A DNA stretch of 64,000 nt from Gammaproteobacteria bacterium (GTDB taxonomy: Bacteria > Pseudomonadota > Gammaproteobacteria > Ga0077536). The stretch spans positions 2,752,001-2,816,000 of the forward strand of contig CAXXLL010000003.1 of the NCBI GenBank assembly GCA_963662545.2. Reading direction: 5' to 3'. The position numbers and the translations under genes are program-made. This document shows positions 18,682-58,993 of this stretch, in pieces. Below the pieces are notes generated by a model that was not told where the DNA came from, made no database searches, and saw nothing but the letters and a program-made list of their open reading frames with translations. Position 1 is the first letter of the stretch; each line of letters opens with the position of its first letter.

Positions 18682-20442
18682 TCACCCTAGTTGATATTCG
18701 GGTCGGCTCAGCATCAGGTGCAATAGCACACGCAGCGGTTCTTCTAAATAGGTGCGGGCGGACAACACATCCTTCGTACCGAGTTCCCGTTCGAAAGCAT
18801 CGGCCAGCATCTTTAGTATCTCGTCGTCCGGCGCTACGGAGAAAAAACGCTCGATGAAATAATCGACCACCGCGGCAGGTGCCGCCAATTCCAGACTCAT
18901 GACCGAACGCGTTAAATCGAGGCGCGCAAGATGGCGGGGAATGGGTTTGACCCGTTCGATCGCCATCTGCCAGCCGCGGTAGCTGCCGTAGCGGGTATTA
19001 AAATCCTCTTCCCGGTCGACCATATTCGACATGGCCATCATGCCGTCGGTGTTTACTGCGTCAACCGGTCGGGTCGCGCTAGCCATGTCTTCGCCATCGC
19101 GCAAACGTCGGTGGACCGCGAGTATCTCAGCGCCGCTCGGGTATTCGGGATAGCGATCATTGGGTACGAACGCGATGTCAGGAAAGACCACATCGAGAAC
19201 GAAGTTGCCGCGCTCGATCAAGAGGCTCGGTGTGATCCAGCTGCGCCCGTAGCTCCAACCCGCCACCGTCGGCGGATGCATCAGGCGCTGCCCCAGGCTC
19301 TCGGTAAGCAGGTTGAAGTCGGGTGCGCCAGGAACTTCGGCCAAGCCAAATTTGCGGTAGGTTGAAATGACGAGTTCTACGGGGCTCTTGATCCGCGTAC
19401 CTATTGATCGCGAGGCGTAGAAGTCCCGTGACAAAAACAGTGTTTCAAGAAACGGTGTGATCTCGTAATTGAGTGCCTTGAGGCGCGCGCCCAGCACCAC
19501 TTTGAATGCCGGTGTTAGCTCATCGCTGACGAAGAATCGATACAGTTTGGCCGCGATGAATTCGGTCGTGGCGGTTTGGTCGAGGATGATATCGATCACT
19601 TCGACGCCGTCGAACCGCCCCGTGCGACCTAGGAATACTTTTTCATCGTCGTCGTGCTTGGCCGCGTCGATCTTGAATTCGAGACCCGCGTAGTTCCATC
19701 CGGTGAACGCGCGCGCGCCTTCACGTATATCTTGCTCCGAATAGTTACCGACGCCCATGGTGAACAGTTCCATGATCTCGCGCGCGAAGTTTTCATTCGG
19801 CGAGCCTTTGACGTTCACGCCCGCGTCGAGAAAAGCGAGCATCGCCGGATCCTGCGCGACGCCAAGCAGCAAGGTGCGAAAATTGCCGAGACCTGCGCTT
19901 TGAAACAATTCCAATTGCTTCAACATCTTCCGATAGTCGCGGACTTTATCCTCGTTGGTCGCGAAGTGCCCGTGCCAGAACAGCGCGACCTTCTCCTGCA
20001 AGGGGTAAGGCGTGGCCAGCATGCGTTGGGCCCACCAATAGGCCACCCGATCGGTTTCGAGACGACTGGCACGCAGCCAGTAAAAAAACTCGTTGACGAT
20101 CGCTTGCATGGGGCGATTGCCCGAGGTCTTGACTTCGATCCCGAGCGATTTACCCTGCTCGGCCGCGAGCGCCGTGGTGGCGGGACGGCTTGGCGGGAAG
20201 GGATCGAGCCCGTCGTTGAAGATGCCTGAGTGGTCGAACGGCGGGAGTGGATTTTCCGCGGCGTTGAACCGTACCAGCGTTTGCACCGCTTGCTGCGGTG
20301 ACATGCCCGCAAGGTGATCGATCTCAGCGGGGGTGCCGCCGAAGGCAGCGCGTTCCAACAGATGCCGGGCTTTGTCCCGGTCCCATTCTTTGGGGGCAAG
20401 AGGTGATAAGTCCAAGCGGATTCCTCCAGCGTTGATTCGCAT
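18682..20442 (-). CDS. DUF1800 protein (possibly 5' truncated)
   Basis: LFWHGHFAT, PNENFAREIMELFTMG, PPTVAGW, PEYQL; adjacent to DUF1501. Confidence 0.88.
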   Translation of the reverse strand: MRINAGGIRLDLSPLAPKEWDRDKARHLLERAAFGGTPAEIDHLAGMSPQQAVQTLVRFNAAENPLPPFDHSGIFNDGLDPFPPSRPATTALAAEQGKSLGIEVKTSGNRPMQAIVNEFFYWLRASRLETDRVAYWWAQRMLATPYPLQEKVALFWHGHFATNEDKVRDYRKMLKQLELFQSAGLGNFRTLLLGVAQDPAMLAFLDAGVNVKGSPNENFAREIMELFTMGVGNYSEQDIREGARAFTGWNYAGLEFKIDAAKHDDDEKVFLGRTGRFDGVEVIDIILDQTATTEFIAAKLYRFFVSDELTPAFKVVLGARLKALNYEITPFLETLFLSRDFYASRSIGTRIKSPVELVISTYRKFGLAEVPGAPDFNLLTESLGQRLMHPPTVAGWSYGRSWITPSLLIERGNFVLDVVFPDIAFVPNDRYPEYPSGAEILAVHRRLRDGEDMASATRPVDAVNTDGMMAMSNMVDREEDFNTRYGSYRGWQMAIERVKPIPRHLARLDLTRSVMSLELAAPAAVVDYFIERFFSVAPDDEILKMLADAFERELGTKDVLSARTYLEEPLRVLLHLMLSRPEYQLG

Positions 20443-21206
20443 ATAGGAAATATAACCCCCTTACATGGTGGGTTTCCAGGCTATCGGGTTATTCATTGTG
20501 GCGGGACTGACGCTGTTCATGGCGTGATCAGGCGGTGGTTGCGGCGGAATTTGTGTGGAATTTAGGGCGAGATCGGGCGGACATGCGGGGTCAGGTTGAA
20601 CAAGAGCCTGCCGCATCGGGGCACGGCATCTGTGGGGGAACGGGGCAGTTCAGGTTGTGTTGAACAGGCTGGCCTGAGGGGGTGCCCGGGGTTCGGGTAA
20701 TGAATTGATCCGGGTGATGGGCTTGGTTCTGTCGAGGTGGTCGAGAATCTTGCGGATGACGAGGGGGTCTTCGATGCAGGCCATGACCTTCAGGGTGCCG
20801 TCACAGGCCTGGCAGGTGGTGATGTCGATGTGGCCTACAGGGATGTAGGTCAGGGGCATGAGCAGGACGCGGAAGCTTTGAAGACCCGCTTGAGGCGTTG
20901 CGCCCAGGTCGCCGCTCTTGCGCATCCCTGCGCCCGCGGCATTAGTGCATCCCTGCACGTCATGGCGGTATGGCGCTCGGCGGGGGTTCGGTCGTGTGTC
21001 TCGTCGGTGGCGCTCTTGCGGCCCTTGCCGCGCCTGGCCGGAGTGATCAGTGCCCGGTGTTTGCTGTTGGGGGCGAAGACACCGTGACAAATTTATCTGG
21101 AATAAATTTGGACGACCGAAGGTCGCCCGAAGGGTGAGGAACAGGGATGTTCCTCATCAAAGCGGGTGAGGTTGACTCGGGGTTTGGGGATCAGTGCGGC
21201 GAGGCG
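20439..21206 (-). mobile_element. Second copy of the IS91/ISCR oriIS end (near-identical to 6748-7515)
   Basis: ~768-bp direct repeat including the same three small insertions. Confidence 0.92.
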
Positions 21207-21595: not shown

Positions 21596-22243
21596 GCGGT
21601 ATCGGTGCCCGGGAGAGTCCGAACCAAAGGGCGTGGGGAGGTACTTTGAGGCCGAAAGAATTGACGTGGCTAATCGGCTCGCGCTTCGGCGACACTGCCG
21701 CACGCGCCGCCGGAAGCATCGCGCGAAAGCATACCCCGCGCTTTGTCGAGGTAAATGCATAGAACATAAACTTTGATCTAAAAGCATGGAGAGGTGCCAG
21801 AGTGATCGAATGGAGCTGACTCGAAAACAGGCATGCCTGAAGATTGTTCTTGGGGGGAACACGCGGGATATCTCGTTATCCACTTAGTCAAAGATTTCGC
21901 GAACTAGATCTAGTAACGTGCCTCTTTCGATTACCCCTTCCGTATCTTTGTTCGACGAGTTACAAACCGTTGATGCTTGAGCACCAACAAAAATACATCT
22001 GCGATTGCACTCGACACACATACTCATGCTCGTTCTCAACGGAGCTTACGGTTTGCAGGTTTTCGAACGCAAACCTTCGCTTGTTATCCGCGCCTGTAGT
22101 CCGGAGTGATTTGGTGTCATTGTTACGATGACGTGCTACCCGAATCGGCACGAGCTATCGCCGAATACCTGCCACCAAACCTGCCATCTAAATCAGCAAG
22201 TCGTCAAAGGAATTTACTGCTTCGGTGTTAACTTGTTGAATAT

Positions 22244-22292
22244 ATGGTGGCCAGGGGCAGAATCGAACTGCCGACACAGGGATTTTCAGTCC
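22244..22292 (-). repeat. att site: duplicated 3' part of tRNA-Phe
   Basis: 49 bp identical to 58917-58965. Confidence 0.93.
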
Positions 22293-22927: not shown

Positions 22928-24133
22928 TTAGGACACCTTGTCGTCCAAGGTGTCTTCATAGCAAGATTCCAGTTTCCTCATCGCAAATGCAATATGTTCG
23001 CCATTCGCATGTGCGTAACGTTCCACCATAGCGAGTGTTCTGTGGCCACTAATTCGCTTTACCGTAGGAAGGTCGACACCGCTTTGCACCAAATGAGTGA
23101 TAGCGGTGTGGCGCAAAACGTGAGGCGTGACGATGTCGGGGTCAAGACCAGCAGCCCTCACGACACGTCGCATGCCTTTTCTAACAGTATTAGTGTGCCC
23201 TGTCTTTGCGCCTGAGGAAGGGAAAATCCAGATCGTGTCCTTGGGTAACGAATCGCAATACGGTTGGAGATAGCTCGCTAGTTTTGTGGTCATCGGCTGA
23301 TCTCGCTGCCCGGCTTTGGCTTTTGGGATATGTATGCGACGGCGCTCAAAATCGATGTCGGACTTCCTTATAGAGAGGATTTCGCTCAACCGCATGCCTG
23401 TTTCAAGACCTATTCTGATAAACGCATAGATTTGCGTGTTGGAATCCTCTTTCGCAGAGTCGAGAAGCGCCTTCGCTTGATTTGACGTCAAATACGTGAT
23501 GCGGCCACTGTCCTCCCGAAGTTTGCGGATGCGACAGGGTCGGCGATCAATCCAACCCCAATCGACGGCACTGTTCAGAAGGTGAGATAGCACGGCGAGT
23601 TCGCGATTTATCGTCGCCGCTTTAACAGTGGTTTCTTTGAGGCGCAAACGCTTGGCATCGGGCTTGCCATTGAGGGCCTTCTGAGATCTGCGCTTCTTCT
23701 TGTATCGCTCGACGTCGAAGTCGGTGATCTGCGACAGCGGCTTCGAGCCAAAGAAGGGGATGAGGTGAAGGGTTAAACGTTTCTCCTTGCGGTCAATTTC
23801 ATTTCCACCTGACTTCCGCAATTTCCAGATATACTCAGTTGCGGCCTCCCTGAACCCACGCAGAGTTTTTCGGCGTTTCGGCAAATTCAACCGGTCGTGC
23901 TTAGCATCAGTTCGAATCTGCGCGATGTAATCTTCTACCTGTTTTCGCGTTGTGCCATCGGATTCGTGGCCTACTACGCGATGGATGCGCTGTCCATCCA
24001 CCATGATGTTTATCGAGAACACACCGTCGCCATTGGACTTGCGCTCGAACGTAATGCCGTGTTCAGTGATGGACTGACGGGACGCTAACTTGCGCATTCG
24101 CGAACGCGTCAACTTGGAGAAAGATTTGGCCAT
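22928..24133 (-). CDS. Tyrosine recombinase/phage-type integrase
   Basis: TGMRLSE, KAK, HVLRHT, GHRTLAMVERYAH (R-K-H-R-H-Y). Confidence 0.93.
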   Translation of the reverse strand: MAKSFSKLTRSRMRKLASRQSITEHGITFERKSNGDGVFSINIMVDGQRIHRVVGHESDGTTRKQVEDYIAQIRTDAKHDRLNLPKRRKTLRGFREAATEYIWKLRKSGGNEIDRKEKRLTLHLIPFFGSKPLSQITDFDVERYKKKRRSQKALNGKPDAKRLRLKETTVKAATINRELAVLSHLLNSAVDWGWIDRRPCRIRKLREDSGRITYLTSNQAKALLDSAKEDSNTQIYAFIRIGLETGMRLSEILSIRKSDIDFERRRIHIPKAKAGQRDQPMTTKLASYLQPYCDSLPKDTIWIFPSSGAKTGHTNTVRKGMRRVVRAAGLDPDIVTPHVLRHTAITHLVQSGVDLPTVKRISGHRTLAMVERYAHANGEHIAFAMRKLESCYEDTLDDKVS

Positions 24134-24144
24134 GTTGGTTAGCT

Positions 24145-24812
24145 AGTGTGCATCCCTAAACGCGATGCGGTTGAAATAAAAAGGAAAATTTGTCGCTTAA
24201 GGGATCGAAACCTCCGGTGGGTCGTGATCTAATGGAACTTCAAACCTCTGATTTTCCACACAATCATCGACACCACAGGAGGGGGAATGCGTCAGAAACG
24301 CACGGCCCAAGCGAGTATATACGAGCTGTTTGCTGACCATGACCTGGGGCGAGAGCTGCAGGGCATGTCCGAGTGGCTCGATGCTCACCCCAAGGTCCTC
24401 ACGCCGGTCATGAACGATCTGTGTCGGCGGGGTTTGAAGCCCACCGGTCGACGCGGACTGTCGGCGGAGTCGGTGCTGCGCTGCGCGGTGCTCAAGCAGC
24501 ACCGGCAATTGAGTTACGAGGAGCTGGCCTTTCACCTGCAGGACTCGGCGAGCTTTCAGGCCTTCGCCCGGTTGCCGGGTAATGAACGTCCGAAGAAGTC
24601 TGCCTTACAGCGGGTGGTCTCGGCGATCCAGGTATCGACGTGGGAGTCTATTCATCGCGCCCTGCTGGCGACGGCGAAAGAGACGCGCATTGAGCCGGCA
24701 CAGCGTGTACGGATTGATAGCACGGTAACGGACAGTGCCATCCACGCGCCGAGCGACAGTCATCTGCTGTGGGATGGCGTGCGTGTTGTGGTTCGTCTGC
24801 TCGCACAGGCGC
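24145..24812 (+). mobile_element. ISNCY/IS5-like IS copy 2 (partial)
   Basis: Identical to the 5' part of copy 1 (11901 onward). Confidence 0.85.
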
Positions 24813-24862
24813 GCACGCGCCGGAGTTGTGCTTCGTGAGTTTTTCGTATGCGCGTGGTTCAA

Positions 24863-25129
24863 CGCAAATTCAACCGGTCGTGCTTAGCATCAGTTCGAAT
24901 CTGCGCGATGTAATCTTCTACCTGTTTTCGCGTTGTGCCATCGGATTCGTGGCCTACTACGCGATGGATTTCGCGCTGTCCATCCACCATGATGTTTATC
25001 GAGAACACACCGTCGCCATTGGACTTGCGCTCGAACGTAATGCCGTGTTCAGTGATGGACTGACGGGACGCTAACTTGCGCATTCGCGAACGCGTCAACT
25101 TGGAGAAAGATTTGGCCATGTTGGTTAGC
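24863..25129 (-). repeat. Duplicated 5' fragment of the integrase gene
   Basis: Near-identical to ~23882-24143; encodes MAKSFSKLTRSRM.. Confidence 0.85.
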
Positions 25130-25148
25130 ATCGATTACGTGGCCAATT

Positions 25149-25951
25149 GTGTGCATCCCTAAACGCGATGCGGTTGAAATAAAAAGGAAAATTTGTCGCT
25201 TAAGGGATCGAAACCTCCGGTGGGTCGTGATCTAATGGAACTTCAAACCTCTGATTTTCCACACAATCATCGACACCACAGGAGGGGGAATGCGTCAGAA
25301 ACGCACGGCCCAAGCGAGTATATACGAGCTGTTTGCTGACCATGACCTGGGGCGAGAGCTGCAGGGCATGTCCGAGTGGCTCGATGCTCACCCCAAGGTC
25401 CTCACGCCGGTCATGAACGATCTGTGTCGGCGGGGTTTGAAGCCCACCGGTCGACGCGGACTGTCGGCGGAGTCGGTGCTGCGCTGCGCGGTGCTCAAGC
25501 AGCACCGGCAATTGAGTTACGAGGAGCTGGCCTTTCACCTGCAGGACTCGGCGAGCTTTCAGGCCTTCGCCCGGTTGCCGGGTAATGAACGTCCGAAGAA
25601 GTCTGCCTTACAGCGGGTGGTCTCGGCGATCCAGGTATCGACGTGGGAGTCTATTCATCGCGCCCTGCTGGCGACGGCGAAAGAGACGCGCATTGAGCCG
25701 GCACAGCGTGTACGGATTGATAGCACGGTAACGGACAGTGCCATCCACGCGCCGAGCGACAGTCATCTGCTGTGGGATGGCGTGCGTGTTGTGGTTCGTC
25801 TGCTCGCACAGGCGCGCGAGTTGCCTGGCGCGCCGGAGTTGTGCTTCGTGAACCACACTCGATTGGCGAAGAAGCGTGCGCGGGCGCTGTGGTATGCGCG
25901 TGGTGCGAAGCAACGCCAACGTCTGTATCGCGATTTGATTGGGGCGACGCG
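25149..25951 (+). mobile_element. ISNCY/IS5-like IS copy 3, truncated by IS6
   Basis: Identical to copy 1 up to ..DLIGATR, then IS6 IR. Confidence 0.85.
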
Positions 25952-26749
25952 GGTTCTGTCAGGTTGGCGCCGGATCGCGGACAATTAACGCATGACAGAA
26001 GCTCCTAATTATCGCGGATATCGATTTCCGCCTGAAATCATCGCGCGGTCGGTGTGGTTGTACCCTCGTTTTACGCTCAGCTTTCGCGATATCGAAGACC
26101 TTTTAGCCGAGCGCGGCGTGACGGTTTCGTATGAAACTATCCGCCAGTGGTGTCTGACGTTTGGACCCGATTACGCTCGCCGAATTAGGAAACATCAGGG
26201 GCCTTGCGGCGACTGTTGGTTTCTCGATGAGGTCGTCGTCTCAATTCAAGGAAAGCGTCGTTACCTTTGGCGAGCCGTGGACCAAGACGGCGATCTGATG
26301 GAGATCCTCGTACAAAAACGCAAGGATACTAAAGCCGCTAAGCGCTTCTTTCGAAAGGCGCTACGCTCACAAACAGCCGTTCCTATCGAGATAACAACCG
26401 ATAAGCTCCGTAGTTACGCCTCAGCCAAACGCGAGGTAATGCCGTCCGTGCCACACTGCCAAGATCACTATGCGAATAACCGCGCGGAAGTTTCACACGA
26501 GCCGACGCGGGAACAAGAAAGGCAGATGCGCGGGTTTCGATCGGACGGACACGCGCAGCGCTTTCTAAGCGTCCACGGTCAAGTCAACAATCTGTTTCGC
26601 CTCGGTCGTCATCTCCTCAGAGCGAAGAACTATCGTGAACTACGCTCCAAGGCATTTCTCACTTGGTCGGAGGTGACATGCGCCTGCTGATTGACGATGA
26701 TTCTACTTGCTCGAAAGATCGGGCCTGCGCGCAACAACCTGACAAAACC
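25952..26749 (+). mobile_element. IS6-family element; transposase 25992-26690
   Basis: YRFPPEII, WFLDEV, LWRAVDQDG, TDKLRSY, NNRAEVSH; IRs GGTTCTGTCAGGTTG / GGTTTTGTCAGGTTG. Confidence 0.92.
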
Positions 26750-26792: not shown

Positions 26793-26885
26793 AAAAAATA
26801 AAAAGGGCCCGACGATGTCGGACCCTTTGGGTACAGCATTTTGCTTTATTGTAACAACGGCTCTCACCCCGGATTGCTGCAATAG
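26793..26885 (-). ncRNA. tracrRNA (type II-C)
   Basis: Anti-repeat: 22/23 match CTCTCACCCCGGATTGCTGCAAT to the repeat, then a bulge and further pairing (26848-26883); followed on minus by hairpin AAAGGGTCCGAC..GTCGGGCCCTTT and a U tract. Confidence 0.9.
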
Positions 26886-26908
26886 CGCTTAGTATTATCG
26901 GAGGTTTC

Positions 26909-29900
26909 GTGATGACGCGCAACAATCTCTCCCTAGGCCTCGACATAGGAATCGCATCAGTTGGTTGGGCTGTCCTGGATTCGGATCACATCATCGCTCT
27001 CGGCGTTCGAGCATTCAATAAGGCCGAAGTCGCTCAAACAGGGGAGTCACTCAATCTTCAACGACGTAGCGCACGACTTGCGAGGCGTACATTAAGACAC
27101 CGACGTCAAAGGCTCGCAAAGCTCGCGAAACTACTAGAAGCCTCGGGCGTTATCACAAAAGAGCGGCTTTACGCCACACCGACGCGAGAAAGTTATCCAT
27201 CGCCTTGGGCTCTTCGAGTCAAAGGTTTAGATGAATGTCTTGCGGGCGAGGAATGGGGCCGCGTTATCTATCACATTTGTAAGCACCGTGGTTTTCATTG
27301 GGTTAGCCGTGTGGAGGAAAAAAAGTCTGGCGAGAATGCGAAACAAGAAGGCGGAAAAGTGAAGCAGGCCCTCAAATCGACGAGAGGTCTATTTGCTTCT
27401 AAGAAATATCGCTCAGCTGCCGAGATGATTATCTCTGAATTTCCCGATGCCTATCGGAACAAGCATGGTGATTATGGAAAAGCGCTGTCTAGAACACTGT
27501 TAAGCGAGGAACTCGAACTCCTTTTCCAACGGCAAAGTTGCCTTAAGAATCCACATGCAACCGATTTTCTAAAAAATGCAGTGTTGGGTAAGGGGGACAA
27601 GAAGACAGGCCTTCTCTGGGAACAACACCCTGCACTGTCTGGGGATGCGCTGCTTGCCATGCTCGGGAAATGCACGTTTGAGCGTCAAGAGTACCGGGCA
27701 CCGCGAAAGAGCTTCACTGCCGAACGTCATGTTTTATTGACGCGGCTCAACAATCTTCGAATAACCATTGACGGTGCAAGAAGGCCACTGACCGACAATG
27801 AGCGCCGATGTGCTCTATCACTTTCTTATGAACGGGCGGCTGATATTAAGTATTCAAAACTTCGGTCAGCCTTAGAAAAGACTTGCGGAACACCTTCTGA
27901 GTTTGCATTCGTGGGGCTTGCCTATCCGAGTGAGTTTCAAAAACAAGAGGAGAAAGCAAAGAATCCCGAGGAGGCAGCCGTTTTTAAATTGCCGGGCTGG
28001 CACGAACTGAGAACTACGCTTAAAAAAGCCGGTCTCGAAGACGAATGGAAACAGCTTACGTGCCTCGCATTAAAAGGTGACCCCACATTATTGGACCAAG
28101 TGGCTTGGGTTTTAAGTGTCTACAAAGAAGACGAAGAAGTGGTGGCGGCTTTGGACGATTTACCCCTGCCAAATAAAGAGGCGGTAATAGATGCGCTCCT
28201 TAGCGTGCAGTTCTCGGAGTTTCATGCATTATCGTTGAAGGCGCTTCGAAATATCGTGCCAAAAATGGAGTTAGGGCTCCGATATGATGAGGCTTGTACA
28301 CAAAGTGGTTATGACCATAGTCAACCGTTCGATCCAGAACGACAGAAAAGCCAATCACTACCGCCGTTCTACTTAGGCCATGACCATTTATCGCGAATGC
28401 GTTTAAACGAAGACGTAGGCGATTTACCCCGAAACCCAGTTGTCATGCGCGCCCTCAATCAGGCTAGGAAAGTCGTTAATGCACTAGTGGGAAAACATGG
28501 AGCTCCCCACTCTGTACATATAGAAATGGCCCGCGACCTTTCACGTCCGCTAACCGAGCGTAGAAAGATTCAAAAAGAGCAAGATGACTACCGGGATAAA
28601 AATGACAAAAACCGCAGCTTCTTTATAGAGCAGTTTAACCGCGAACCCCGAGGGCAAGAGTTCCAGAAACTTCAACTTTATCGGGAACAATCCGGTAAAT
28701 GTCTTTACTCCCTTGCTCCACTCGATCTGTCAAGATTGTTAGAGATGGGTTACGTAGAAATCGATCATGTTTTGCCGTACTCAAGAAGCTATGACGATAG
28801 TAAAAATAACAAGGCCTTAGTTCTCACAAAGCAAAATAGAGACAAAAGCGATTTAACTCCGTACGAGTATCTTCAGGGCGCTCAAGATACTGAAGCGTGG
28901 ATAAAGTTCTCGGCCTTCGTCAAGTCCAACAAAAACTACCGCGCCGCGAAACGAAACCGTCTTCTAACGAAAGACTTCGACGAAGAGAATGCTAAAGACT
29001 TCCAGGAACGAAATCTAAATGACACGCGGTATATCTGCCGATATTTCAAGAGTTACTTAGAGGAATATTTAGAACTCTCCGACGAGAGCGAACACCGACG
29101 TTGCGTGGTGGTCAATGGCCGACTAACCGCATTTCTGCGTGCTCGCTGGGGGCTCCATAAAGAACGCTCTGAGAGTGACAGACATCATGCATTGGATGCC
29201 GCGGTCGTAGCGGCGTGCACTCGCGGCATGGTCAAACGCTTGGCCGATTACGCTAAGGGCCGAGAGCTACGTTATGTTCAGGCAGATTCCATTGACCGGG
29301 AAACCGGAGAGATTATTGATTTCGACAGGTATAAAAAACTAGAGAACGAATTTCCACAACCCTGGCAAGGCTTTCGGGGAGAGCTACTCGCGCGGTTAAA
29401 CACAGACGATGTGTCCACCCTGAGAGCATCATTGTCGAAACTCGGAACTTACAGTCGTGAGGAAATCGAAGCGGTAAAACCACTCTTCGTCTCACGGGCA
29501 CCCCAACGCCGGAACTCCGGCGCAGCGCATATGGACACAATTTATCAGCAAACAACAAGGCTTAAAGATGAGCGAAAAATCAGCCAAAAAATCAAGCTCG
29601 CCGGTCTGTCTTTTCGGCAAACCAAGAAAACGCCGAAACCCATAACCGAGCAAATAGAACAATTCGTGAAAAAATTGGCTGACCCACATAGAAACCAGAA
29701 ACTCTACGACGCTGTTTGTGATCGGTTGAAGGCATTCGCGGGCGACGGGAAAAAAGCGTTCAGTGCCGAGAACCCTCTCTACAAACCGGACAAGAACGGA
29801 AACCCGACAGGACCCATTGTCCGAACAGTGACAATGAGCGAGCGAATGTCCGGGATTCCAGTTCGGGGTGGATTGGCAAAGAACGAAACCATGCTTCGCG

Positions 29901-30295
29901 TGGACACATTTTCAAAAGGAGGCAAGCACTATCTTGTCCCGGTCTATGTACACCACAAGGTAACTGGTCTACCCAATCACGCTATCGTTAGCGGGAAGGA
30001 TGAGGCCGACTGGAGAGAGGTGGACGAGACATTTGAGTTTGAATTTTCCTTATATCCGAATGACTTGTTGCAAATTTGCCTCAAAAAACAGACGCACCTT
30101 GGGTATTTTGCTGGCTGTAATCGATCCAATGGGGCCATACATTTGTGGGCCCATGATCGATCGTCCAAAGTGGGCAAAAACGGCCTAATAAGCAGTATCG
30201 GTATTCAAAGGGCAAAGCACCTTAAAAAGTTTGAAGTTGATGTGCTCGGAAACCGTTTTCTCGCGAAAGCCGGTAAGCGAGATGGGCTGGCGTAG
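26909..30295 (+). CDS. cas9: Type II-C CRISPR effector Cas9, 1128 aa
   Basis: RuvC-I LGLDIGIASVG, Arg-rich bridge helix, RuvC-II HIEMAR, HNH EIDHVLPYSRSYDDSKNNK, RuvC-III RHHALDA; RBS GGAGG. Confidence 0.97.
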   Translation: MMTRNNLSLGLDIGIASVGWAVLDSDHIIALGVRAFNKAEVAQTGESLNLQRRSARLARRTLRHRRQRLAKLAKLLEASGVITKERLYATPTRESYPSPWALRVKGLDECLAGEEWGRVIYHICKHRGFHWVSRVEEKKSGENAKQEGGKVKQALKSTRGLFASKKYRSAAEMIISEFPDAYRNKHGDYGKALSRTLLSEELELLFQRQSCLKNPHATDFLKNAVLGKGDKKTGLLWEQHPALSGDALLAMLGKCTFERQEYRAPRKSFTAERHVLLTRLNNLRITIDGARRPLTDNERRCALSLSYERAADIKYSKLRSALEKTCGTPSEFAFVGLAYPSEFQKQEEKAKNPEEAAVFKLPGWHELRTTLKKAGLEDEWKQLTCLALKGDPTLLDQVAWVLSVYKEDEEVVAALDDLPLPNKEAVIDALLSVQFSEFHALSLKALRNIVPKMELGLRYDEACTQSGYDHSQPFDPERQKSQSLPPFYLGHDHLSRMRLNEDVGDLPRNPVVMRALNQARKVVNALVGKHGAPHSVHIEMARDLSRPLTERRKIQKEQDDYRDKNDKNRSFFIEQFNREPRGQEFQKLQLYREQSGKCLYSLAPLDLSRLLEMGYVEIDHVLPYSRSYDDSKNNKALVLTKQNRDKSDLTPYEYLQGAQDTEAWIKFSAFVKSNKNYRAAKRNRLLTKDFDEENAKDFQERNLNDTRYICRYFKSYLEEYLELSDESEHRRCVVVNGRLTAFLRARWGLHKERSESDRHHALDAAVVAACTRGMVKRLADYAKGRELRYVQADSIDRETGEIIDFDRYKKLENEFPQPWQGFRGELLARLNTDDVSTLRASLSKLGTYSREEIEAVKPLFVSRAPQRRNSGAAHMDTIYQQTTRLKDERKISQKIKLAGLSFRQTKKTPKPITEQIEQFVKKLADPHRNQKLYDAVCDRLKAFAGDGKKAFSAENPLYKPDKNGNPTGPIVRTVTMSERMSGIPVRGGLAKNETMLRVDTFSKGGKHYLVPVYVHHKVTGLPNHAIVSGKDEADWREVDETFEFEFSLYPNDLLQICLKKQTHLGYFAGCNRSNGAIHLWAHDRSSKVGKNGLISSIGIQRAKHLKKFEVDVLGNRFLAKAGKRDGLA

Positions 30296-31190
30296 CGTTG
30301 TCATTTCGTCCCCAGCAGTGCTTAAACGACGGCACAATTCTCTCGCGATTATTCAAGGCAACACGGCGCTCATACCGTTTGAAGATATCGCGGTTATCAT
30401 TTTAAACCACCGAGAAATTACGTTAACGCACCCGGTCTTAAGTTTCTGCTCTCAGCACGGAATAGCGCTCTTCGCAACAGGAGATGACCATCAGCCGTGC
30501 GGTGTTTTCGTTCCGTTCCTTACGCATACCAGGACTACCAAGTTACTACGACAACAGCTGTCAGCCCCGAAACCGTTAACTAAGCGGACTTGGGCTGCAA
30601 TCGTTCAATCGAAGATCCACAATCAATCCACTTGCCTGCGACTATCGGGTAAGCGGGGTGCGTCTCAATTGGAGTCCTATAGGCGCCGCGTCAGATCTGG
30701 TGACAGCACCAACATGGAAGGCCAAGCCGCCTGGGCATATTTCACCCAACTGTTCGGCGATAAGTTCCGACGGGGCGCAGACGATTGGAGAAACTCCGCT
30801 CTTAACTATGGATACGCTGTACTTAGGGGGGCGATCGCCCGCTCTTTGGTGGGGCATGGTTTTCATCCGAGTGTTGGCTTGTTTCATTCGAGCGAACGAA
30901 ATGCATTCAACTTAGCTGACGACATCATTGAGCCTTTCAGGCCTGTCGTAGACCTATCGGTCGTAAAACGCTATGGCAACAGTGACAAGATAGCGCTTAC
31001 AACCGAAGACAAGGCTTATTTAATATCGTTGCTCAACGTCGATGTCAGCTTGTCTAACGACAAAACATCCGTGCTGTCCGCAATCGATGATGTTGTCACC
31101 AGCATCATGCGAGTTTTTGAACAGCAAGACGAAGCTCTGCTCGTTCTTCCCATTTTGCTGGGGATGAATCAACACGTCGATAATGATTGA
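30282..31190 (+). CDS. cas1: Type II Cas1
   Basis: MGWRSVVI, IPFEDI, NMEGQAA, NSALNYGYAVLRG, NAFNLADDIIEPFRP. Confidence 0.95.
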   Translation: MGWRSVVISSPAVLKRRHNSLAIIQGNTALIPFEDIAVIILNHREITLTHPVLSFCSQHGIALFATGDDHQPCGVFVPFLTHTRTTKLLRQQLSAPKPLTKRTWAAIVQSKIHNQSTCLRLSGKRGASQLESYRRRVRSGDSTNMEGQAAWAYFTQLFGDKFRRGADDWRNSALNYGYAVLRGAIARSLVGHGFHPSVGLFHSSERNAFNLADDIIEPFRPVVDLSVVKRYGNSDKIALTTEDKAYLISLLNVDVSLSNDKTSVLSAIDDVVTSIMRVFEQQDEALLVLPILLGMNQHVDND

Positions 31191-31216
31191 CGGTGGGAAC
31201 GGAGACCCGCCGACAT

Positions 31217-33888
31217 ATGAGAATGCTGGTGTTATTTGATCTCCCGATGGTCACGAAGGAGCAAAAACGTACATATAGTCGATTCCGTCGATATCTCCTC
31301 TCAGACGTAACCGGTCAAACGGCGGCGTCTGGTAATTGATCTCGTGTTGCGGTAACGACGGCCAAGTTAGAACGCAGCGGTTGGGTAGCGAACAATGTCT
31401 TCCACACCCGAGGCGTGAGTTGTTCCACTGCGCTATCCGGATGGATCGCGATCCTCTGGAGTACATCAACCAGGTAGGTGTACGGATTAATGCCGTGTAT
31501 TCGGCAAGTACAGATCAAACTTTGTATGATCCCAACGTGTTCAGCGCCCACCTCAGTCCAACAGAACATCCAATTCTTTCGGCCCATCGGAATGGGTCTC
31601 AGAGCGCGCTCTAAATGATTCGTGTCGATCGCGACGCTCGCATCCGATAAGTAAACACGTAACGCGCCCTCACGCTCGGCTGCATAGGCCAGCGCCTTCG
31701 TAAACGGCTGACTCGGTAATAAACCCATGCACTGGCGTTGCTCGTCAAGCCAGGCAAAAAATGCATCAACCGCAGGCAAGGCGTACCGGCTGCGGTAGGT
31801 CTGGGTCGCCGCTTCATCCATTGCCTGGTCACGGATGGTGGCCTCAACGGCATACAGTGCCGCGATCAAATCAAGTGCCTGCGCCGCACTTTGTGGCCTA
31901 TCGGATAATGCCCTTTCGAACTGACGACGCGTGTGCGCCCAGCATTGCGCATGCACGACTTCATCGCCGCGATCGGCGGCAAAACGCGCATAAGCCGCGG
32001 CGCCATCGGTTAGTAAGGTGCCTTTAAAGTCCACCAACGTTTTGTCGATGTGCGACCGCGCCTTGGTTCGCGCAAACGTGAACGCAATCTCATCCGCTTC
32101 GCCATAAATTGGCCAATACCACGCCGCGTTCATCTTGCCCTTGCCCGAGCGACCCGCCTTAATCGGCGTTTCATCCATCGCCAGCGTCTTCGATAACAAG
32201 ATATGCCGCAACTGCGCCAGATAAATCGGCTTCAACAGGTCACTTGCCTTCTGCACCCAGTGCGTCAGACTCGACCGCGCCACGGTAATGCCGTTCAGCC
32301 CCATTCGTTGATGTTGACGGTACAGCGGCAGGTGATAAGCGAACTTATCAACCAGCATCCCCGCAACCACACTCACATCCGCCAATGAGCCGGACCACAG
32401 ACCATCGGGCGCCGGGATCGTGAAGATCTGACCGTCGCTTTTGCGCTTCACTACCGGTTGGATGTACTTCAAGACCACATAGGCCGCCGGCCGTTGCGCT
32501 AAACGATAGGTGATCTTTTCACTGCTCGCTTCAAACGCATCCGCGACATCTTCAGGTACCGACAATTGGATGCATTCAATCGGCACCGAGTCATCGAAAC
32601 GTAACCCTTGATCAGTCACACAATCATCGCCACGGCGCTTTCCTTTGCGCCGCTGATAAGTGATCGTTTCTTTCTCAACCGCCGCCGTCGATGACGACTC
32701 ATCCTCGAAGCCATTGAGTAACCGTTGATCGGGATTGGGATCAATCAGCCGCCGTTCAGACTTGCGACCGAACAGTTGGCGTTTGAACCAGTCGAGTTGT
32801 TGGGTGAGTGTGGCGACCTGCGTTTTGAGGGCTGTGTTTTCCGCTTGTAACACCGCCGCATCAAGTGATATTTCCGGCGTTGCATAACCCCCATTCATGG
32901 GTACGTATTGTACCGTTTACACTGCTGACCGTCGATCGTTTTCCGGTAATCGAAACCGTTTTAATCGACGCACTGAGCGTAGATCGATCCCTTCAATAAT
33001 GCACTGCCATTCGCTGCGTTGCAGCCGCTGTTTGACCTCGCTATTCCACCGAACCTGGAACTGACCGCGTTCGAGTTTCTTACTCCACAGACAATATCCG
33101 TCCGACTCAAAGTACAGCGCTTTTAATAACGTACGCCGGCGATTGACGAAAACGTACAGTGCCCCATCGAGGGGCTCCTCGTGTAACGCCTGCCGCACCA
33201 ACGCCGATAAACCATGGAACGATTGACGCATATCAGTCGGTGCCCGACATAACCATATACGCAAACCCGATGGGGGCGACCACATCAGTGCCGTGACACA
33301 CGTAGCACGATGTCATCACCGAGCGCTAACTCGATATCCCATTGTGCATTGGTTAATGGTTGTAACGGGGCCAACTCGACGAAACGTGTTTCCGCCTTCC
33401 CTATCTGAGCGTCCCTCGCTGACCTCGACTTCCTTTTACTGAACGTCGAATATCCAATTCCTCGCTCAGCACAGAATGCGCGGATCGATGAACCGCTTTG
33501 TGCCTGCTCCGCTAATAGGCCACGCCACTCATCCGCACTACGTCGTTTGTTCCGAGGTTTTCCGTGATCATTCATTTACCAAGCTCCCGATTGACTGGGA
33601 AACCTGGCAAACTAAACCATCTGCCCGAGACCGTGAATAACGGCCTGGATTGACCGGTTACTCTCAGACGGCTACGACATGATTCAGTATTCCGTTTATG
33701 GGCGCCTTTTGAACGGTAAAGACGCGCAAGCCAAACATTTTAAACGCTTGATAAATCACTTACCGCCCGAGGGATCGATTCGATGTCTTACGATAACCGA
33801 GAAGCAATTTGCGAGCATGAAGCTGCTTGTGGGTATGCCGCTTTTTCAGGAAAAAGCCGTCACATCCGAGCAAATGCTGCTTTTTTAG
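31217..33888 (+). pseudogene. cas2: Cas2 interrupted by IS66 (31217-31306 + 33670-33888)
   Basis: MRMLVLFDLPMVTKEQKRTYSRFRRYLLSD joins in frame with [25 protein letters not shown] after removing the IS and one TSD copy. Confidence 0.95.
31307..33661 (-). mobile_element. IS66 element 1 (tnpA 33285-33575, tnpB 32917-33285, tnpC 31315-32898)
   Basis: GTAACCGGTCAA..TTGACCGGTTAC IRs; 8-bp TSD TCTCAGAC; TnpC MDETP, CWAHTRR, DTNHLERALR. Confidence 0.95.
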
Positions 33889-33904
33889 TGGTTTTAAAGA
33901 AATC

Positions 33905-33935
33905 GCAACCCCGCCGGCCTATGCCTAGCGGGGCT
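33905..33935 (-). terminator. Hairpin between cas2 and the array (probable array terminator)
   Basis: CCCCGC..GCGGGG stem followed on minus by a T-rich tract. Confidence 0.45.
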
Positions 33936-33948
33936 TCTCGGCAAGTCT

Positions 33949-34528
33949 ATTGTAGCAATCCGGGGTGAGAGAGGGAGCTACAACAGAGCTGGACGCCAGC
34001 CCCATTCGTTGATGTTGACGGTACAGCGGCAGGTGATAAGCGAACTTATCAACCAGCATCCCCGCAACCACACTCACATCCGCCATTGACAGCGTGAGAT
34101 TGTAGCAATCCGGGGTGAGAGAGGGAGCTACAACCTGTATGAATGCGTGGCGATTGTCCAGACGATTGTAGCAATCCGGGGTGAGAGAGGGAGCTACAAC
34201 TTAGGCTCCTTTTCGGACACGACCTCGATCATTGTAGCAATCCGGGGTGAGAGAGGGAGCTACAACCGCTAATGCTCTGTGCCGCAATCCAAAATAATTG
34301 TAGCAATCCGGGGTGAGAGAGGGAGCTACAACCCATTGTCACGACACAATGAAGCGGCTACAGACAAGATTGTAGCAATCCGGGGTGAGAGAGGGAGCTA
34401 CAACACCTACGCCGTCTGCGCCTGTCGGACCTGTATTGTAGCAATCCGGGGTGAGAGAGGGAGCTACAACCCGGGCTAAGTCAGTGAAAACACCATCAAC
34501 ATTGTAGCAATCCGGGGTGAGAGAGGGA
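33949..34528 (-). CRISPR. CRISPR array: 7 full and 1 truncated 36-bp repeats; 7 spacers (114, 30, 30, 30, 36, 30, 30 bp)
   Basis: Minus-strand repeat GTTGTAGCTCCCTCTCTCACCCCGGATTGCTACAAT, Neisseria II-C-like; plus-strand starts 33949, 34099, 34165, 34231, 34297, 34369, 34435, 34501. Confidence 0.97.
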
Positions 34529-36878
34529 GTAACCGGTTAAACGGCGACGTCTTGAATTCGTTTCTGCGGTGTGTTGGTCACGGCCAAATCAGACCGTAGC
34601 GGGTTATCACTGAACATCGATTTCCATACCCGCGGCGTCAACTGCTCCACCGCACTATCCGGATGGATCGCGATCCGTTGCAGCACATCGACCAGGTAGG
34701 TATACGGGTTGATACCGTGCAAGCGACACGTGCAGAGCAAACTCTGGATGATCCCAACATGCTCGGCACCCACCTCCGTCCAGCAAAACAACCACGCCTT
34801 GCGCCCCATCGGGATAGGCCGAAGTGCACGCTCTAAGTGATTGGTATCAATGGCGACACTCGGATCTGATAGATAAATCCGCAATGCGCCCTCACGCTCA
34901 CTCGCATAACCGACAGCTTTAGTAAACGGTTGGCTGGGTAATAAGTCCAGCCGCTGGCGTTGCCCATGCAACCAAGCAAAGAACGCATCCACCGCCGGCA
35001 AAGCATGTAAACCGCGAGTCGCCTGCGTCGCCACTGCCTCCATTTGTTGCTTGCGGATAGTGGCCTCAACCGTATACAGCTGACCTATCAGTTCAAGCGC
35101 GGCATGGGCGCCTGGTGGGTCATCTGACAACGCCCGTTCGAATTGGCGTCTTGTATGGGCCCAGCATTGCGCGTGCACCACATCCTCGTGTTCAATCGCA
35201 TAGCGGGTATAAGCCGCCGCACCATCCGTTAACAGCGTGCCCTTAAAGTCCAACAAGGTCTTCTCGATATGCGTGCGCGCTTTACTCGGCGCAAAGGTAA
35301 ATGCGATTTCATCCGCCTCGCCATAGATCGGCCAATACCAGGCCGTTCTCATCTTGCCTTTACCTGCGCGGCCCGCCTTGACCGGCGTCTCGTCCATCGC
35401 CAGCGTCTTCGATTGCAAGATATGCCGTAACAGCGCCAGATAAATCGGTTGCAGTAAGCCGCTCGCTTTCTTCACCCATTGCGTCAAGCTAGCACGCGAT
35501 ACCGTAATGCCATTCATCGCCAGTCGCTGATGTTGGCGATACAACGGTAAGTGATAGGCGAATTTGTCGACCAGCATCCCAGCGACCACACTCACATCCA
35601 CCATGCTGCCGGGCCACAGACCTTCCGGCGCCGCAAGGGTAACGATTTGACCATCGCGCTTGCGCTTCACCACCGGCCGGATGTACTTCAATACCACATA
35701 CGCCCCCGGCCGTTGCGCTAACCGATAGGTCACCTTCTCGCTAATCGATTCAAAGTCACCCGCCAGGTCTGCCGGTACCGATAAGCGGATGGTTTGGATC
35801 GGCACCGAGTCATCAAACCGCAAGCCTTGCTCGGTCACACAATCCGCATCACGACGCTTACCTTTGCGCCGTTGATACGTAATGGTTTCTTTCTCAACTT
35901 GCGCTGCCTCAGGCCGCGCTACGTTAAAGCCATCCAGTTGCGGTTGGTCCGGATTGGGCTCGATTAAACGCCGTTCAGACTTGCGGCCGAACAGTTGGCG
36001 TTTGAACCAGTCGAGTTGATGGGTGAGTTGTGCGACTTGCGATTTAAGGGCGGTGATTTCTGCTTGTAACATCGTCGCATCGAGGGGAGTGCAGTGTGAC
36101 GCAGCCCTCTTTCATGAGCGTGAATTATAACGTTTGCACGCTTGAACGTCGATCGTTTTCAGGTAAATTAAAACGCCTTAATCGACGCACTGAACGTAAG
36201 TCGATGCCTTCAATAATGCATTGCCATTCGCTACGTTGGAGCCGCTGTTTGACGTCGCTGTCCCAACGTACTTGGAACTGACCGCGCTCTAATCGTTTAC
36301 TCCAGATACAATAACCATCTACTTCAAAGTACAACGCCTTCAGCAATGTCCGTCGGCGATTCACAAAAACGTACAACGCACCGTCGAGCGGGTCTTCGTT
36401 TAAGCCTTGGCGGACCAAAGCCGACAAGCCGTGAAAAGATTTACGCATGTCGGTCGGCGACCGGCACAACCAAATGCGCAAACCGCAAGGCGCTGACCAC
36501 ATCAGCGACGCGCCAACCGCAACACAATATCGGGGCCCAGGGTGACCTCGACATCCCAACCATCATTTGACGATGACCGTGGCGGTGATAACTCAATGAA
36601 GGGGATTGTTTGTGACGCGGTTTGCTCCGCCCCGGATAATGCCGACTTCCAGCGCGCAAAGGTTGAATAACCGATGCCGCGTTGCGCGCAAAAAGCTTTG
36701 ACCGAGAGCCCACTTTGGGCTTGCTCTGCGAACAATGCTCGCCACGCGGCGGGTGTACGGCGCTTCCAGCGGGATTTGCGTTGTGGTGTCATGTGCCAGG
36801 CTCCTAACGGGACGGAAAACCTGGCAAACTAACTCACTGCCATTTAAATCGGAATGACGGTCTGGTTTAACCGCTTAC
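34529..36878 (-). mobile_element. IS66 element 2 (tnpA 36502-36792, tnpB 36125-36502, tnpC 34537-36072), inserted in a CRISPR repeat
   Basis: GTAACCGGTTAAAC..GTTTAACCGCTTAC IRs; paralog of element 1; no TSD. Confidence 0.93.
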
Positions 36879-39000
36879 GTTCCTACGACCGGGTCGCCGC
36901 GTTCGCACGAGCTTGGCGGGCGCAGCAGCAAGAAGCAGTAAAAGCGAGCCGCGCCGCGTTTGTCCCGCTGGTGTTTGCACCAGGAGAAGCGTTTCAATTC
37001 GACTGGAGTGACGACTGCACGGATGCAGGAGGTAGAGCAATGCAGGAGCAATTGCCGAAGATTGGGCAGTGATCGGTGGCGAGCGCCGTAAGCTGATGGT
37101 CGCGCATTTCAAGCTGTCTTATAGCCGTGCGTTCATCCTCAGGGCCTACCCGTTGCAGACCCACGAGATGCTCTTCGACGCCCACAACCACGGGTTAGCG
37201 GTGCTCGGCGGTGTGCCGCAGCGCGGCATTTACGACAACATGAAGACGGCGGTGGATCGTGTCGGCCGAGGCAAAGCCCGAGCGGTCAACGCGCGTTTCC
37301 AAGCAATGGCCAGTCACTTCTTATTCGAGGCCACATTTTGTAACCCCGCCGCCGGCTGGGAGAAGGGCCAGGTCGAGAAAGGGGTGAGAGACTCACGGTC
37401 GCGACTGTGGCACGACGCGCCGAAGTTTGCCGACCTGGACGAACTCAACACCTGGTTGAGTGCGCGTTGTCAGACTCTATGGCACGAAGTCCGCCATCCG
37501 GAGCAGCCGACACAGACCATCGCTGAGGTCTGGGCGGATGAACGACCGGCGCTGATGCGGATGCCACCACCGTTTGATGGATTCATCGAACACACCAAAC
37601 GCGTCTCGCCAACGTGTTTGATCGCGTTCGAACGTAATCGTTACAGCGTACCCGCGGCTTTCGCGAACCATGCTGTGAGCTTACGGGTTTACGCGGACCG
37701 CCTCGTCGTTGCCGCCGAAGGTCATCCAGTCGTTGAACATCCTCGATTGTTTGCGCAAGGCCATGACCGTGTGGCGCAAGTGTTATACGACTGGCGTCAT
37801 TATCTGGCGGTGCTACAACGCAAACCGGGTGCATTGCGCAACGGTGCACCATTTGCGGAACTGCCAGCAGCCTTCAAACGCCTCCAGTCAATGCTGCTCA
37901 AACGTCCTGGAGGAGACCGCGAGATGGTCGACATCCTGGCGTTGGTGTTACACCACGACGAACAGACCGTGTTGTGTGCGGTAGAACTCGCGCTTGAAAC
38001 CGGCGCACCATCGAAGCAGCACGTTATAAATATTCTAAACCGGTTGCTCGCAGCAACCGCGCCGGCGCCTATCGACACGCCGGCTGGATTAAGTTTGACT
38101 GCAGAGCCGCAAGCCAATGTCGATCGCTACGATCACTTACGGGAGCGCATGCATGCCAGCTGAGGCCATGGTGACGACCTTAAAATCGTTAAAACTTCAC
38201 GGCATGGCTGACGCTATCGGTGAACTCGCTCAACAACAAGCGCCCGCTTATCACCAAGCCGAGCCGCTGCTAGAGTCACTGCTCAAAGCGGAAGTTGCAG
38301 AGCGTGAAGTGCGCTCGATCAACTATCAAATGAAAGTGGCTCGCTTCCCGGCATACCGTGACTTGGCTGGTTTCAACTGCGCCGAGAGCGCCGTTGACCA
38401 AACGCTGGTGAAGTCTCTCCATGCCGGTGATTTCATCGACGACGCACACCACGTCGTGTTCATCGGCGGACCTGGGACAGGCAAGACCCATTTAGCAACG
38501 GCGATTGGCGTCCATGCGATCAGACATCTTCATCTGCGCGTTCGCTGCTTCTCTACCATCGAACTTGTCAACCTGATCGAGCAAGAAAAGGCAGACGGCA
38601 AACCCGGACAAATGGCTAATCGTCTTGTCCATGCCGATCTCGTCATTCTCGATGAACTCGGTTATTTACCATTCTCGCGAGCGGGCGGCGCATTGCTCTT
38701 CCATTTACTGAGCAAGCTATACGAACGTACCAGCGTCGTCATCACGACGAATCTCAGTTTTTCTGAATGGTCGAGCGTGTTCGTCGACCCGAAAATGACG
38801 ACCGCACTTTTGGACCGATTCACGCATCACTGCCATATCGCTGAGACTGGCAATGATAGCTATCGATTCAAAAACAGTTCAATACGCGAGAAAAAGGAAA
38901 AGAAGACTAGAAAATTATCAAAGTAACGAGCCATACTGGCTCTTCCGGGTGGGTCAATTTTCAATGCAAATCCCGGATCACTTTTCGATGCAACTCAACA
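36879..39000 (+). mobile_element. IS21 element 1, 5' truncated (istA remnant 36879-38163 with frameshifting insertion; istB 38153-38926)
   Basis: GIYDNMKTAV, WEKGQVE; Ist[17 protein letters not shown]; end ..CAACTCAACA. Confidence 0.9.
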
Positions 39001-41758: not shown

Positions 41759-43073
<1,315 letters not shown>

Positions 43074-58917: not shown

Positions 58918-58993
58918 TGGTGGCCAGGGGCAGAATCGAACTGCCGACACAGGGATTTTCAGTCCCCTGCTCTACCGACTGAGCTACCTGGCC
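58918..58993 (-). tRNA. tRNA-Phe(GAA)
   Basis: GGCCAGGTAGCTCAGTCGGTAGAGCAGGGGACTGAAAATCCCTGTGTCGGCAGTTCGATTCTGCCCCTGGCCACCA, 76 nt with CCA. Confidence 0.97.

Follow-up and report, generated by a model that had tools for sequence, protein, structure and literature searches.

A Neisseria-type (II-C) CRISPR-Cas9 locus on a tRNA-Phe island, with cas2 split and the repeat array cut by insertion sequences

The stretch of 64,000 nucleotides (nt) analysed here (positions 2,752,001 to 2,816,000 of contig CAXXLL010000003.1, assembly GCA_963662545.2, from a bacterium labelled Gammaproteobacteria; hereafter the window, with coordinates counted from its first letter) carries a CRISPR locus with cas genes which, judged by gene content and similarity, is an ordinary Neisseria-type (subtype II-C) CRISPR-Cas9 defence locus on a mobile island. 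The Cas9 effector and its guide RNAs are apparently intact, cas2 is split by one insertion sequence (IS) of the IS66 family, and the repeat array is cut by another. Taken together, the observations described below make it very probable that this is an island-borne, horizontally acquired, Nme1Cas9-like II-C system in which adaptation is probably dead and interference is probably still possible. The cas9 gene, a divergent trans-activating CRISPR RNA (tracrRNA), cas1 and an array of 36-bp repeats all lie within an island of ~36.6 kb, where a preliminary description of this DNA had placed them. The features of the locus are the following.

26793..26891, minus strand: tracrRNA, with anti-repeat at ~26886-26849, short stem-loop 1, terminator hairpin and T-run; putative 5' end
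26912..30295, plus strand: cas9, 1127 amino acids (aa) from the ATG at 26912
30282..31190, plus strand: cas1, ~302 aa from the ATG at 30282, overlapping the end of cas9
31217..31306, plus strand: cas2, N-terminal 30 codons
31307..33661, minus strand: IS66-1, an IS66-family element of 2,355 bp
33670..33888, plus strand: cas2, C-terminal 72 codons
33949..34528, minus strand (CRISPR RNA, crRNA, sense): CRISPR array, seven exact 36-bp repeats and a cut eighth
33997..34089, no strand assigned: IS66 fragment of 93 nt, inside the array
34529..36878, minus strand: IS66-2, an IS66-family element that cuts the eighth repeat

Cas9 and its guide RNAs

The open frame of cas9 extends from a GTG at 26909 to 30295 and would encode 1128 aa from that codon; the ATG at 26912 is the likely start because a GGAGG (26900-26904) lies 7 nt ahead of it and the resulting product of 1127 aa has the length of an identical database entry. 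The protein matches the Pfam families HNH_4 and RuvC_III as well as the NCBIfam model TIGR01865 (739.6 bits, with a cut-off of 100), and aligns over its full length with Cas9 chains of the PDB, the best being 6JDQ and 6JDV (E = 1.9e-217). In the alignment with 6JDQ, D12 corresponds to D16 and H620 to H588, which we take to be catalytic residues of Nme1Cas9, and an alignment of the window Cas9 with 13 relatives (14 sequences) shows no variation at D12, E539, H620, N643, H760 and D763. The other top-scoring chain, 6JDV, is Nme1Cas9 (bioRxiv 10.64898/2026.08.17.745178). The gene product accordingly fits the pattern of type II effectors, being one large protein in which the RuvC domain is split, an HNH domain is present and the catalytic residues are complete, and the intact Cas9 with RuvC and HNH catalytic motifs announced in the preliminary description is indeed present, albeit probably one residue shorter than the 1128 aa given there. 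The best PDB score of 728 bits compares with a self-match of 2,583 bits, i.e., the protein is far from near-identity to a characterised Cas9, a finding that had been named as one that would refute that description.

The gene set is that of subtype II-C, namely cas9, cas1 and cas2 only, and the spacing of the genes leaves no room for others, the sole additional open reading frames (ORFs) being those of IS66 elements. The proposed lack of csn2 and cas4 at the locus holds, given that neither fits in the gene spacing; furthermore, Cas4 was not found anywhere in the genome (the control of this search was positive in 8 of 14), and a genome search for Csn2 gave no match, although its control was silent as well. 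The assignment as Neisseria-like also stands, on the grounds of the best solved relatives (6JDQ and 6JDV), a cas1 of the NMENI subtype, repeats of the Rfam family CRISPR-DR34 and a crRNA strand opposite to that of the cas genes.

The predicted tracrRNA ends in an intrinsic terminator (26828-26802) followed by a T-run that reaches 26793. Its anti-repeat was independently picked up in a blind genome search with the array as query (24 nt with a 96% match to the repeat), and the predicted repeat:anti-repeat duplex has an energy of -48.9 kcal/mol, compared with a mean of -18.6 ± 2.8 for 500 shuffled sequences, none of which reached so low a value. Pairing of an anti-repeat with the CRISPR repeat, the property by which the tracrRNA of type II systems is recognised, is thus predicted for this RNA. 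A scan of genomes gave 337 Cas9 relatives. Of 80 loci retrieved around relatives of the window Cas9, 75 have the same RNA in the same place and orientation, and the remaining five have no DNA upstream of cas9. In an alignment of 76 sequences, compensatory changes affect 10 of the 18 predicted tracrRNA pairs; the three pairs that form stem-loop 1 and the seven that form the terminator stem are all among them. A -10-like box is found at a conserved distance upstream of the anti-repeat, with 54 TANNNT starts at -27 to -24 among the 76 sequences; in the window, a GATAAT is seen by eye at the corresponding place, which a simple promoter scan did not flag. Stem-loop 1 of the window RNA, at 11 nt, is the shortest of the 76 (median 23). 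The duplex, the terminator and the conservation in all 75 testable relatives bear out the divergent tracrRNA with an anti-repeat that pairs with the 36-bp repeat, as originally described. The same conservation and the covariation support, in silico, the further proposal that a single guide RNA (sgRNA) could be designed directly from the window.

The seven exact 36-bp repeats start at 33949, 34099, 34165, 34231, 34297, 34369 and 34435 (none would be expected by chance) and match CRISPR-DR34 on the minus strand. In the crRNA sense, the repeat starts with GTTGTAGCTCCC and ends with TGCTACAAT, and of the 60 related arrays found, 56 yielded a consensus, every one of which retains the TA...T-like (i.e., -10-like) end. 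In N. meningitidis, crRNAs are transcribed from promoters internal to the repeats (PMC5965381). This model fits the present locus because the -10-like repeat end is kept throughout these arrays and, by analogy, transcription of the crRNAs probably starts from such a box at the 3' end of each repeat.

The interruption of cas2 and the truncated array

The cas1 gene (frame open from 30231) is of full length and belongs to the NMENI type, in agreement with the preliminary description: it matches Pfam Cas_Cas1 (6.3e-31) and TIGR03639, cas1_NMENI (278.1 bits, with a cut-off of 120), and in 73 of 76 loci of relatives its alignment extends as far as residue 315-316 of 319. By contrast, cas2, which that description lists beside cas1, is not intact as it would be in a regular II-C locus, the gene being split at 31306/33670 by IS66-1. 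All 30 residues of the N-terminal piece, defined by its reading frame, match by tblastn in 72 relatives' loci, and the C-terminal piece covers positions 28-74 of 74 of Pfam CRISPR_Cas2 and 29-96 of 96 of TIGR01573. The two pieces are 2,363 nt apart and are contiguous (gap 0) in all 71 relatives where both match. IS66-1, which is present in 13 copies in the genome and encodes a tnpA-like small ORF, tnpB and tnpC (Pfam DDE_Tnp_IS66 and TnpB_IS66), has the 8-bp sequence TCTCAGAC on both sides (31299-31306 and 33662-33669) as a perfect target duplication. Searches with working controls detected no second cas1 or cas2 in the genome. With cas2 split and no other cas1 or cas2 available, spacer acquisition is probably dead in this strain.

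The insertion is polymorphic. Logan contigs of four runs (X1, X4, X7 and X10) were compared over 31100-34600, with a minimum of 31 letters required on each side of a joint. X7 and X10, which come from two studies, each have one contig in which 31297 is followed directly by 33661, the shorter of the two arms measuring 198 letters, and this joint skips 2,363 nt, which is exactly IS66-1 plus one copy of the duplication. The same joint is seen in X4, from a third study, with only 30 letters on one side, which falls short of the required 31. No joint of this kind is seen in X1, whose contigs extend from cas2 into the IS for 27-28 letters on both sides. Given that strains in other samples carry an uninterrupted cas2, the break is recent and strain-specific, the intact gene being present in closely related strains elsewhere and, for the same reason, the locus is a broken member of its kind rather than a system of a different kind. 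The literature matches on II-C cas2 genes disrupted by an IS concern, in the text available, other organisms only, and a search of it by host genus names gave nothing relevant. Some of the runs that contain part of the locus are labelled sponge metagenome, from which we draw no claim about habitat.

At the other end of the locus, the array comprises, between its repeats, five 30-nt spacers, one 36-nt spacer and a unit of 114 nt, and the eighth repeat breaks off after 28-29 nt, where one end of IS66-2 adjoins it. Accordingly, the 36-bp repeat that had been described exists, in seven exact copies, and its eighth copy is cut. IS66-2 is ~76% similar to IS66-1, lacks a target duplication, and borders on an IS21 transposase gene that is itself truncated (37069-38163). 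It has two copies in the genome, 99.9% identical, the second of which is on contig C2 (2307-4659 in locus L120); neither copy has an 8-bp duplication and the four flanks are unrelated. No further repeats were found in the genome at up to 3 mismatches. A reciprocal exchange that would account for the lost part of the array was considered and could not be shown, the flanks of the C2 copy being unrelated and without a duplication.

The 114-nt unit (33985-34098) contains the 93-nt IS66 fragment, flanked by 12 and 9 unexplained nt. The fragment matches 32296-32388, inside the IS66-1 transposase gene, with 99% identity, and all 13 copies of IS66-1 in the genome differ from it by the same single base. 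Oversized spacer capture, templated repair and an assembly error are possible origins, and in the first two cases the unit could record an unusual event within a II-C array. Self-targeting by this unit would not be expected because, if the crRNAs mature as in Neisseria, the guide portion adjoining the downstream repeat would consist by half of non-IS sequence. The Logan contigs of all four runs, X1 included, leave 34025-34375 uncovered, and the comparison of the array stops short there. The contig of run X10 continues past 33984 with 30 letters unlike the window.

None of the six spacers has a detectable target. Searching the array by blastn against 50,697 phage records yielded only chance matches of 20-25 nt (E = 7), and the search against 72,556 plasmids met nothing but chance matches (E = 4) and further CRISPR repeats, in Pasteurella and Acidovorax; exact 24-nt searches of a viral contig collection gave zero matches for each of the six spacers, and there is no spacer match in the genome itself. 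The spacer search recommended in the preliminary description as a route to the protospacer adjacent motif (PAM) thus yielded no PAM, with no target found for any spacer.

We propose that the locus works as follows. Short crRNAs would be transcribed from the minus strand, probably from the -10-like box at the 3' ends of the repeats as in N. meningitidis, and the repeat part of each would pair with the anti-repeat of the divergent tracrRNA; the dual RNA would load Cas9, in which the RuvC and HNH catalytic residues are in place, and Cas9 would cut DNA that matches one of the six spacers beside a 3' PAM. Adaptation has probably been lost, with cas2 split, no second cas2, and the array cut by the second IS66 element. 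The outcome would be a frozen, decaying system that probably can still interfere and can no longer learn. Such a locus can be viewed as a snapshot of a CRISPR-Cas9 system taken apart by IS elements shortly after its arrival on the island, with adaptation being lost first and the effector and RNAs remaining. Pairs of strains with broken and unbroken cas2 could show what a Cas9 system without Cas2 still does.

Three other readings have to be weighed against this one. The preliminary description implied a complete, fully working adaptive system (cas9-cas1-cas2-array), and in favour of this possibility, cas9, cas1 and the tracrRNA look intact and the uninterrupted cas2 of other strains implies that the system was complete very recently. 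For this strain, however, that picture is wrong because one IS splits cas2, leaving pieces of 30 and 72 codons 2,363 nt apart in a genome with no other cas1 or cas2, and another IS cuts the array, which ends within a repeat; a complete system is already contradicted by the sequence, and we regard it as very unlikely. Alternatively, the whole locus might be a dead relic, in which Cas9 or the RNAs are no longer expressed or active and the frame simply has not yet decayed. The island is full of IS elements and their fragments, two of which have already struck the locus, only ~100 nt separate the tracrRNA terminator from the end of an IS6-family transposase gene, and none of the six spacers has a known target, all of which would be compatible with a relic. 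Against this stand a complete Cas9 that retains every catalytic residue, seven repeats without a single difference, and an intact tracrRNA with terminator and -10-like box; the hit in cas2 is also recent, so that there has been little time for silent decay. A relic is unlikely. Finally, Cas9 and the RNAs could have been kept for a role other than defence, e.g., gene regulation, after adaptation was lost. Cas9 is intact while cas2 is broken, as this scenario would have it, and in N. meningitidis a II-C-associated small RNA is reported to regulate a host operon (PMC13431127), which is an analogy only. Apart from the locus itself, however, no match to a spacer or to the tracrRNA was found in the host genome, and the break in cas2 is so recent that no form of selection can be read from it; a non-defence role appears extremely unlikely.

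Several observations weigh against the preferred reading, i.e., a horizontally acquired II-C system capable of interference but not of adaptation. An open Cas9 frame is no proof of activity, and the activity is entirely inferred; with no spacer target found, the present value of the system in defence is uncertain. The TG of an extended -10 box is not conserved across the clade. Among 20 runs from 7 studies that are listed as containing the locus, none is recorded as RNA. Run X1, with an IS side under 31 letters, may be the very sample from which the window was assembled, and therefore lends no independent support to the insertion. With respect to the island, no empty attachment (att) site was found, and the one same-genus genome with the tRNA-Phe flank has unrelated DNA beyond the tRNA.

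The PAM-interacting domain and the clade of related enzymes

The C-terminal 246 residues of the window Cas9 score 170.6 bits with the Nme1-type PAM-interacting domain versus 51.4 bits with 6JE3, which we take to be Nme2Cas9, and the identity to Nme1 chains over this domain is ~42% (by a hand count of alignment letters). From these comparisons, the domain as a whole is clearly of the Nme1 type. In Nme1Cas9, the PAM is contacted by Q981, H1024, T1027 and N1029 (PMC9433092), the equivalents of which in the window protein are S1028, N1071, N1074 and A1076, so that all four differ. Among the 120 nearest homologues, which display 27 different quartets at these positions, S/N/N/A occurs once, in the window protein itself, and at the equivalent of 1024, 67 of them have D, 30 have H and 23 have N. 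The metagenomic relative that is 86% identical to the window Cas9 has the quartet G/D/T/C.

In Nme1Cas9 orthologues, D at the 1024 position goes with C at PAM position 5, and H or N with a purine (PMC9433092). Since the window protein has N at the equivalent of H1024, our best guess by this rule, and the only prediction available, is a PAM with four unspecified positions followed by a purine (N4R...). The preliminary description held that the PAM region looks divergent and that the PAM may be new. The first part is off the mark for the domain overall, which is of the Nme1 type, and apt for the contact residues, all four of which differ; no protospacer was found, and a new PAM is plausible judging from those residues.

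The window Cas9 belongs, by sequence comparison, to a very large II-C clade. Among the candidates scored, 2,449 Cas9-clade proteins were found at E ≤ 0.001, hundreds of them ~60% identical, with a coverage of 99-100%. The closest Cas9 is the single metagenomic protein at 86%, and the next, at 58-62%, carry labels such as Betaproteobacteria, Thiobacillus, Azonexus and Novimethylophilus; a scan of metagenomes gave 233 relatives, and the 80 that were kept are all ≤62% identical. The clade is mostly betaproteobacterial (MAGs and isolates recorded as Nitrosomonas, Sideroxydans, Rhodocyclaceae, Methylobacillus, Thiobacillus, Azonexus and others), with 47-62% identity to the window Cas9 along the entire protein. 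It shares with the window locus the gene order, the position of the array ~1.3 kb after cas9, the tracrRNA and a nearly identical repeat, in 56 of the 56 arrays with a consensus, the repeat of one locus (L081) being identical. The window Cas9 nevertheless stands apart within the clade, having one 86% relative with all the others at ≤62%, an S/N/N/A quartet that no other of the 120 nearest homologues has and the shortest stem-loop 1 of the 76. The repeat string was found in the main text of no paper (supplements were outside the search), and no biochemical characterisation of a clade member was found in the literature searched.

Compared with the system of Nme1Cas9, the window locus has the same RuvC and HNH residues, the same type of PAM-interacting domain, only cas9, cas1 and cas2, crRNAs encoded opposite to the cas genes, and a 36-bp repeat that starts with GTTGTAGCTCCC and ends with GCTACAAT. 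It differs in that the protein is ~45 residues longer and far from identical (728 bits versus 2,583 bits for the self-match), the tracrRNA is upstream of cas9 and divergent, the four PAM contacts are changed, cas2 is broken and the array is cut. In the part of the study of Wei et al. (2022, eLife; PMC9433092) considered here, the 29 Nme1Cas9 orthologues tested are 59.6-70.4% identical to Nme1Cas9, and "closely related" denotes >50% identity together with interchangeable guide RNAs. To set against the >50% figure, the window Cas9 offers ~42% over the PAM-interacting domain only, by the hand count, and the 728 bits relative to its self-match of 2,583. It has in common with those orthologues the type of PAM-interacting domain and the D/H/N variation at the equivalent of H1024; it appears, however, to be more distant from Nme1Cas9 than they are, and none of them is reported, in that part of the study, with the S/N/N/A quartet.

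As a lead for tool development, the locus adds another compact II-C Cas9, for which the guide RNA can be read and the PAM, the above guess aside, is not predicted. Enzymes of this sort are by now mined routinely and on a large scale (bioRxiv 10.64898/2026.08.17.745178), and public data already contain hundreds of members of the clade that share this repeat and tracrRNA, so that the value of this one rests entirely on the usefulness of its PAM or activity; the sole claim that would set it apart from an ordinary clade member is a possibly unusual PAM. Should this Cas9 read a PAM not yet available among the characterised compact II-C enzymes, then, combined with the shortest natural stem-loop 1, it would offer a new targeting range with a smaller guide scaffold, a prospect that we consider rather doubtful.

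The island and the host genome

The boundaries of the island are given by the following features.

22244..22292, no strand assigned: distal att (left island edge), where 49 nt of the tRNA-Phe 3' part recur as a direct repeat
22928..24133, minus strand: tyrosine recombinase (island integrase), 401 aa
58918..58993, minus strand: tRNA-Phe (GAA), with the proximal att copy (right island edge) in its 3' 48 nt

The att repeat (22244-22292 and 58917-58965) consists of the 3' 48 nt of tRNA-Phe plus one base, with an exact match of 33 nt and a pairwise identical run of ~49 nt, and the distal copy is also matched by the tRNA end of a same-genus genome. The integrase, encoded beside the distal copy, matches Pfam Phage_integrase (5.9e-36) as well as NCBIfam tyrosine-recombinase models, all of the latter below their equivalog cut-offs. 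A direct repeat of a tRNA 3' end at both edges and an integrase next to one of them is the usual configuration of a tRNA island, and all parts of the CRISPR-Cas locus are located between the two att copies, as had been stated. The right boundary is further supported by the same-genus genome G002, in which the stretch resembling the window begins precisely at the 3' end of the tRNA and extends 3.3 kb rightward at 90%; beyond its tRNA-Phe, G002 has unrelated DNA that is absent from the present genome. The GC content is 0.48-0.52 over cas9-cas1 compared with 0.58-0.64 at the ends of the window, and of 40 related genomes, only two have a cas9-like match (35% and 41-44% identity), while neither of two same-genus genomes has one. 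The att repeat and integrase, the low GC, the rarity of cas9 in relatives and the edge of synteny suggest that the locus was most likely acquired horizontally.

The IS elements or fragments of the island include IS5-like, IS6-family (two), IS66 (two), IS21 (three) and IS3-like (two) ones. The transposase genes of the IS6-family (DDE_Tnp_IS240), of 232 aa each, at 25992-26690 and 40976-41674, bracket the cas locus in the same orientation. A composite transposon formed by these two genes was rejected because they share no blastn-detectable DNA similarity. Near the left edge, a duplicated block (23881-24814 and 24864-25817, 97.9%) encompasses the 5' end of the integrase gene and the start of the IS5-like element and leaves an ORF for a 90-aa N-terminal fragment of the integrase at 24859-25131; further copies of the IS5-like element, at 99.9%, are at 11896-12704. 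At 42087-42203, there is an Rfam ALIL pseudoknot (84.3 bits), the frameshift signal of an IS3-family element, the transposase ORF of which follows at 42126-43034.

Just left of the island, ~43 nt at 21788-21830 have 86-95% matches in most genomes of the family, often in several nearby copies; ARAGORN calls no tRNA there. Also outside the island, a 768-nt repeat (6748-7515 and 20439-21206, 99.9% identical), the left part of which (the first 507 nt of the query) recurs often in the genome, is probably another mobile element. Finally, a 108-bp tandem repeat (2.8 copies, 88% matches) at 53260-53556 lies within overlapping ORFs on the two strands (53114-53608, plus, and 53141-53623, minus).

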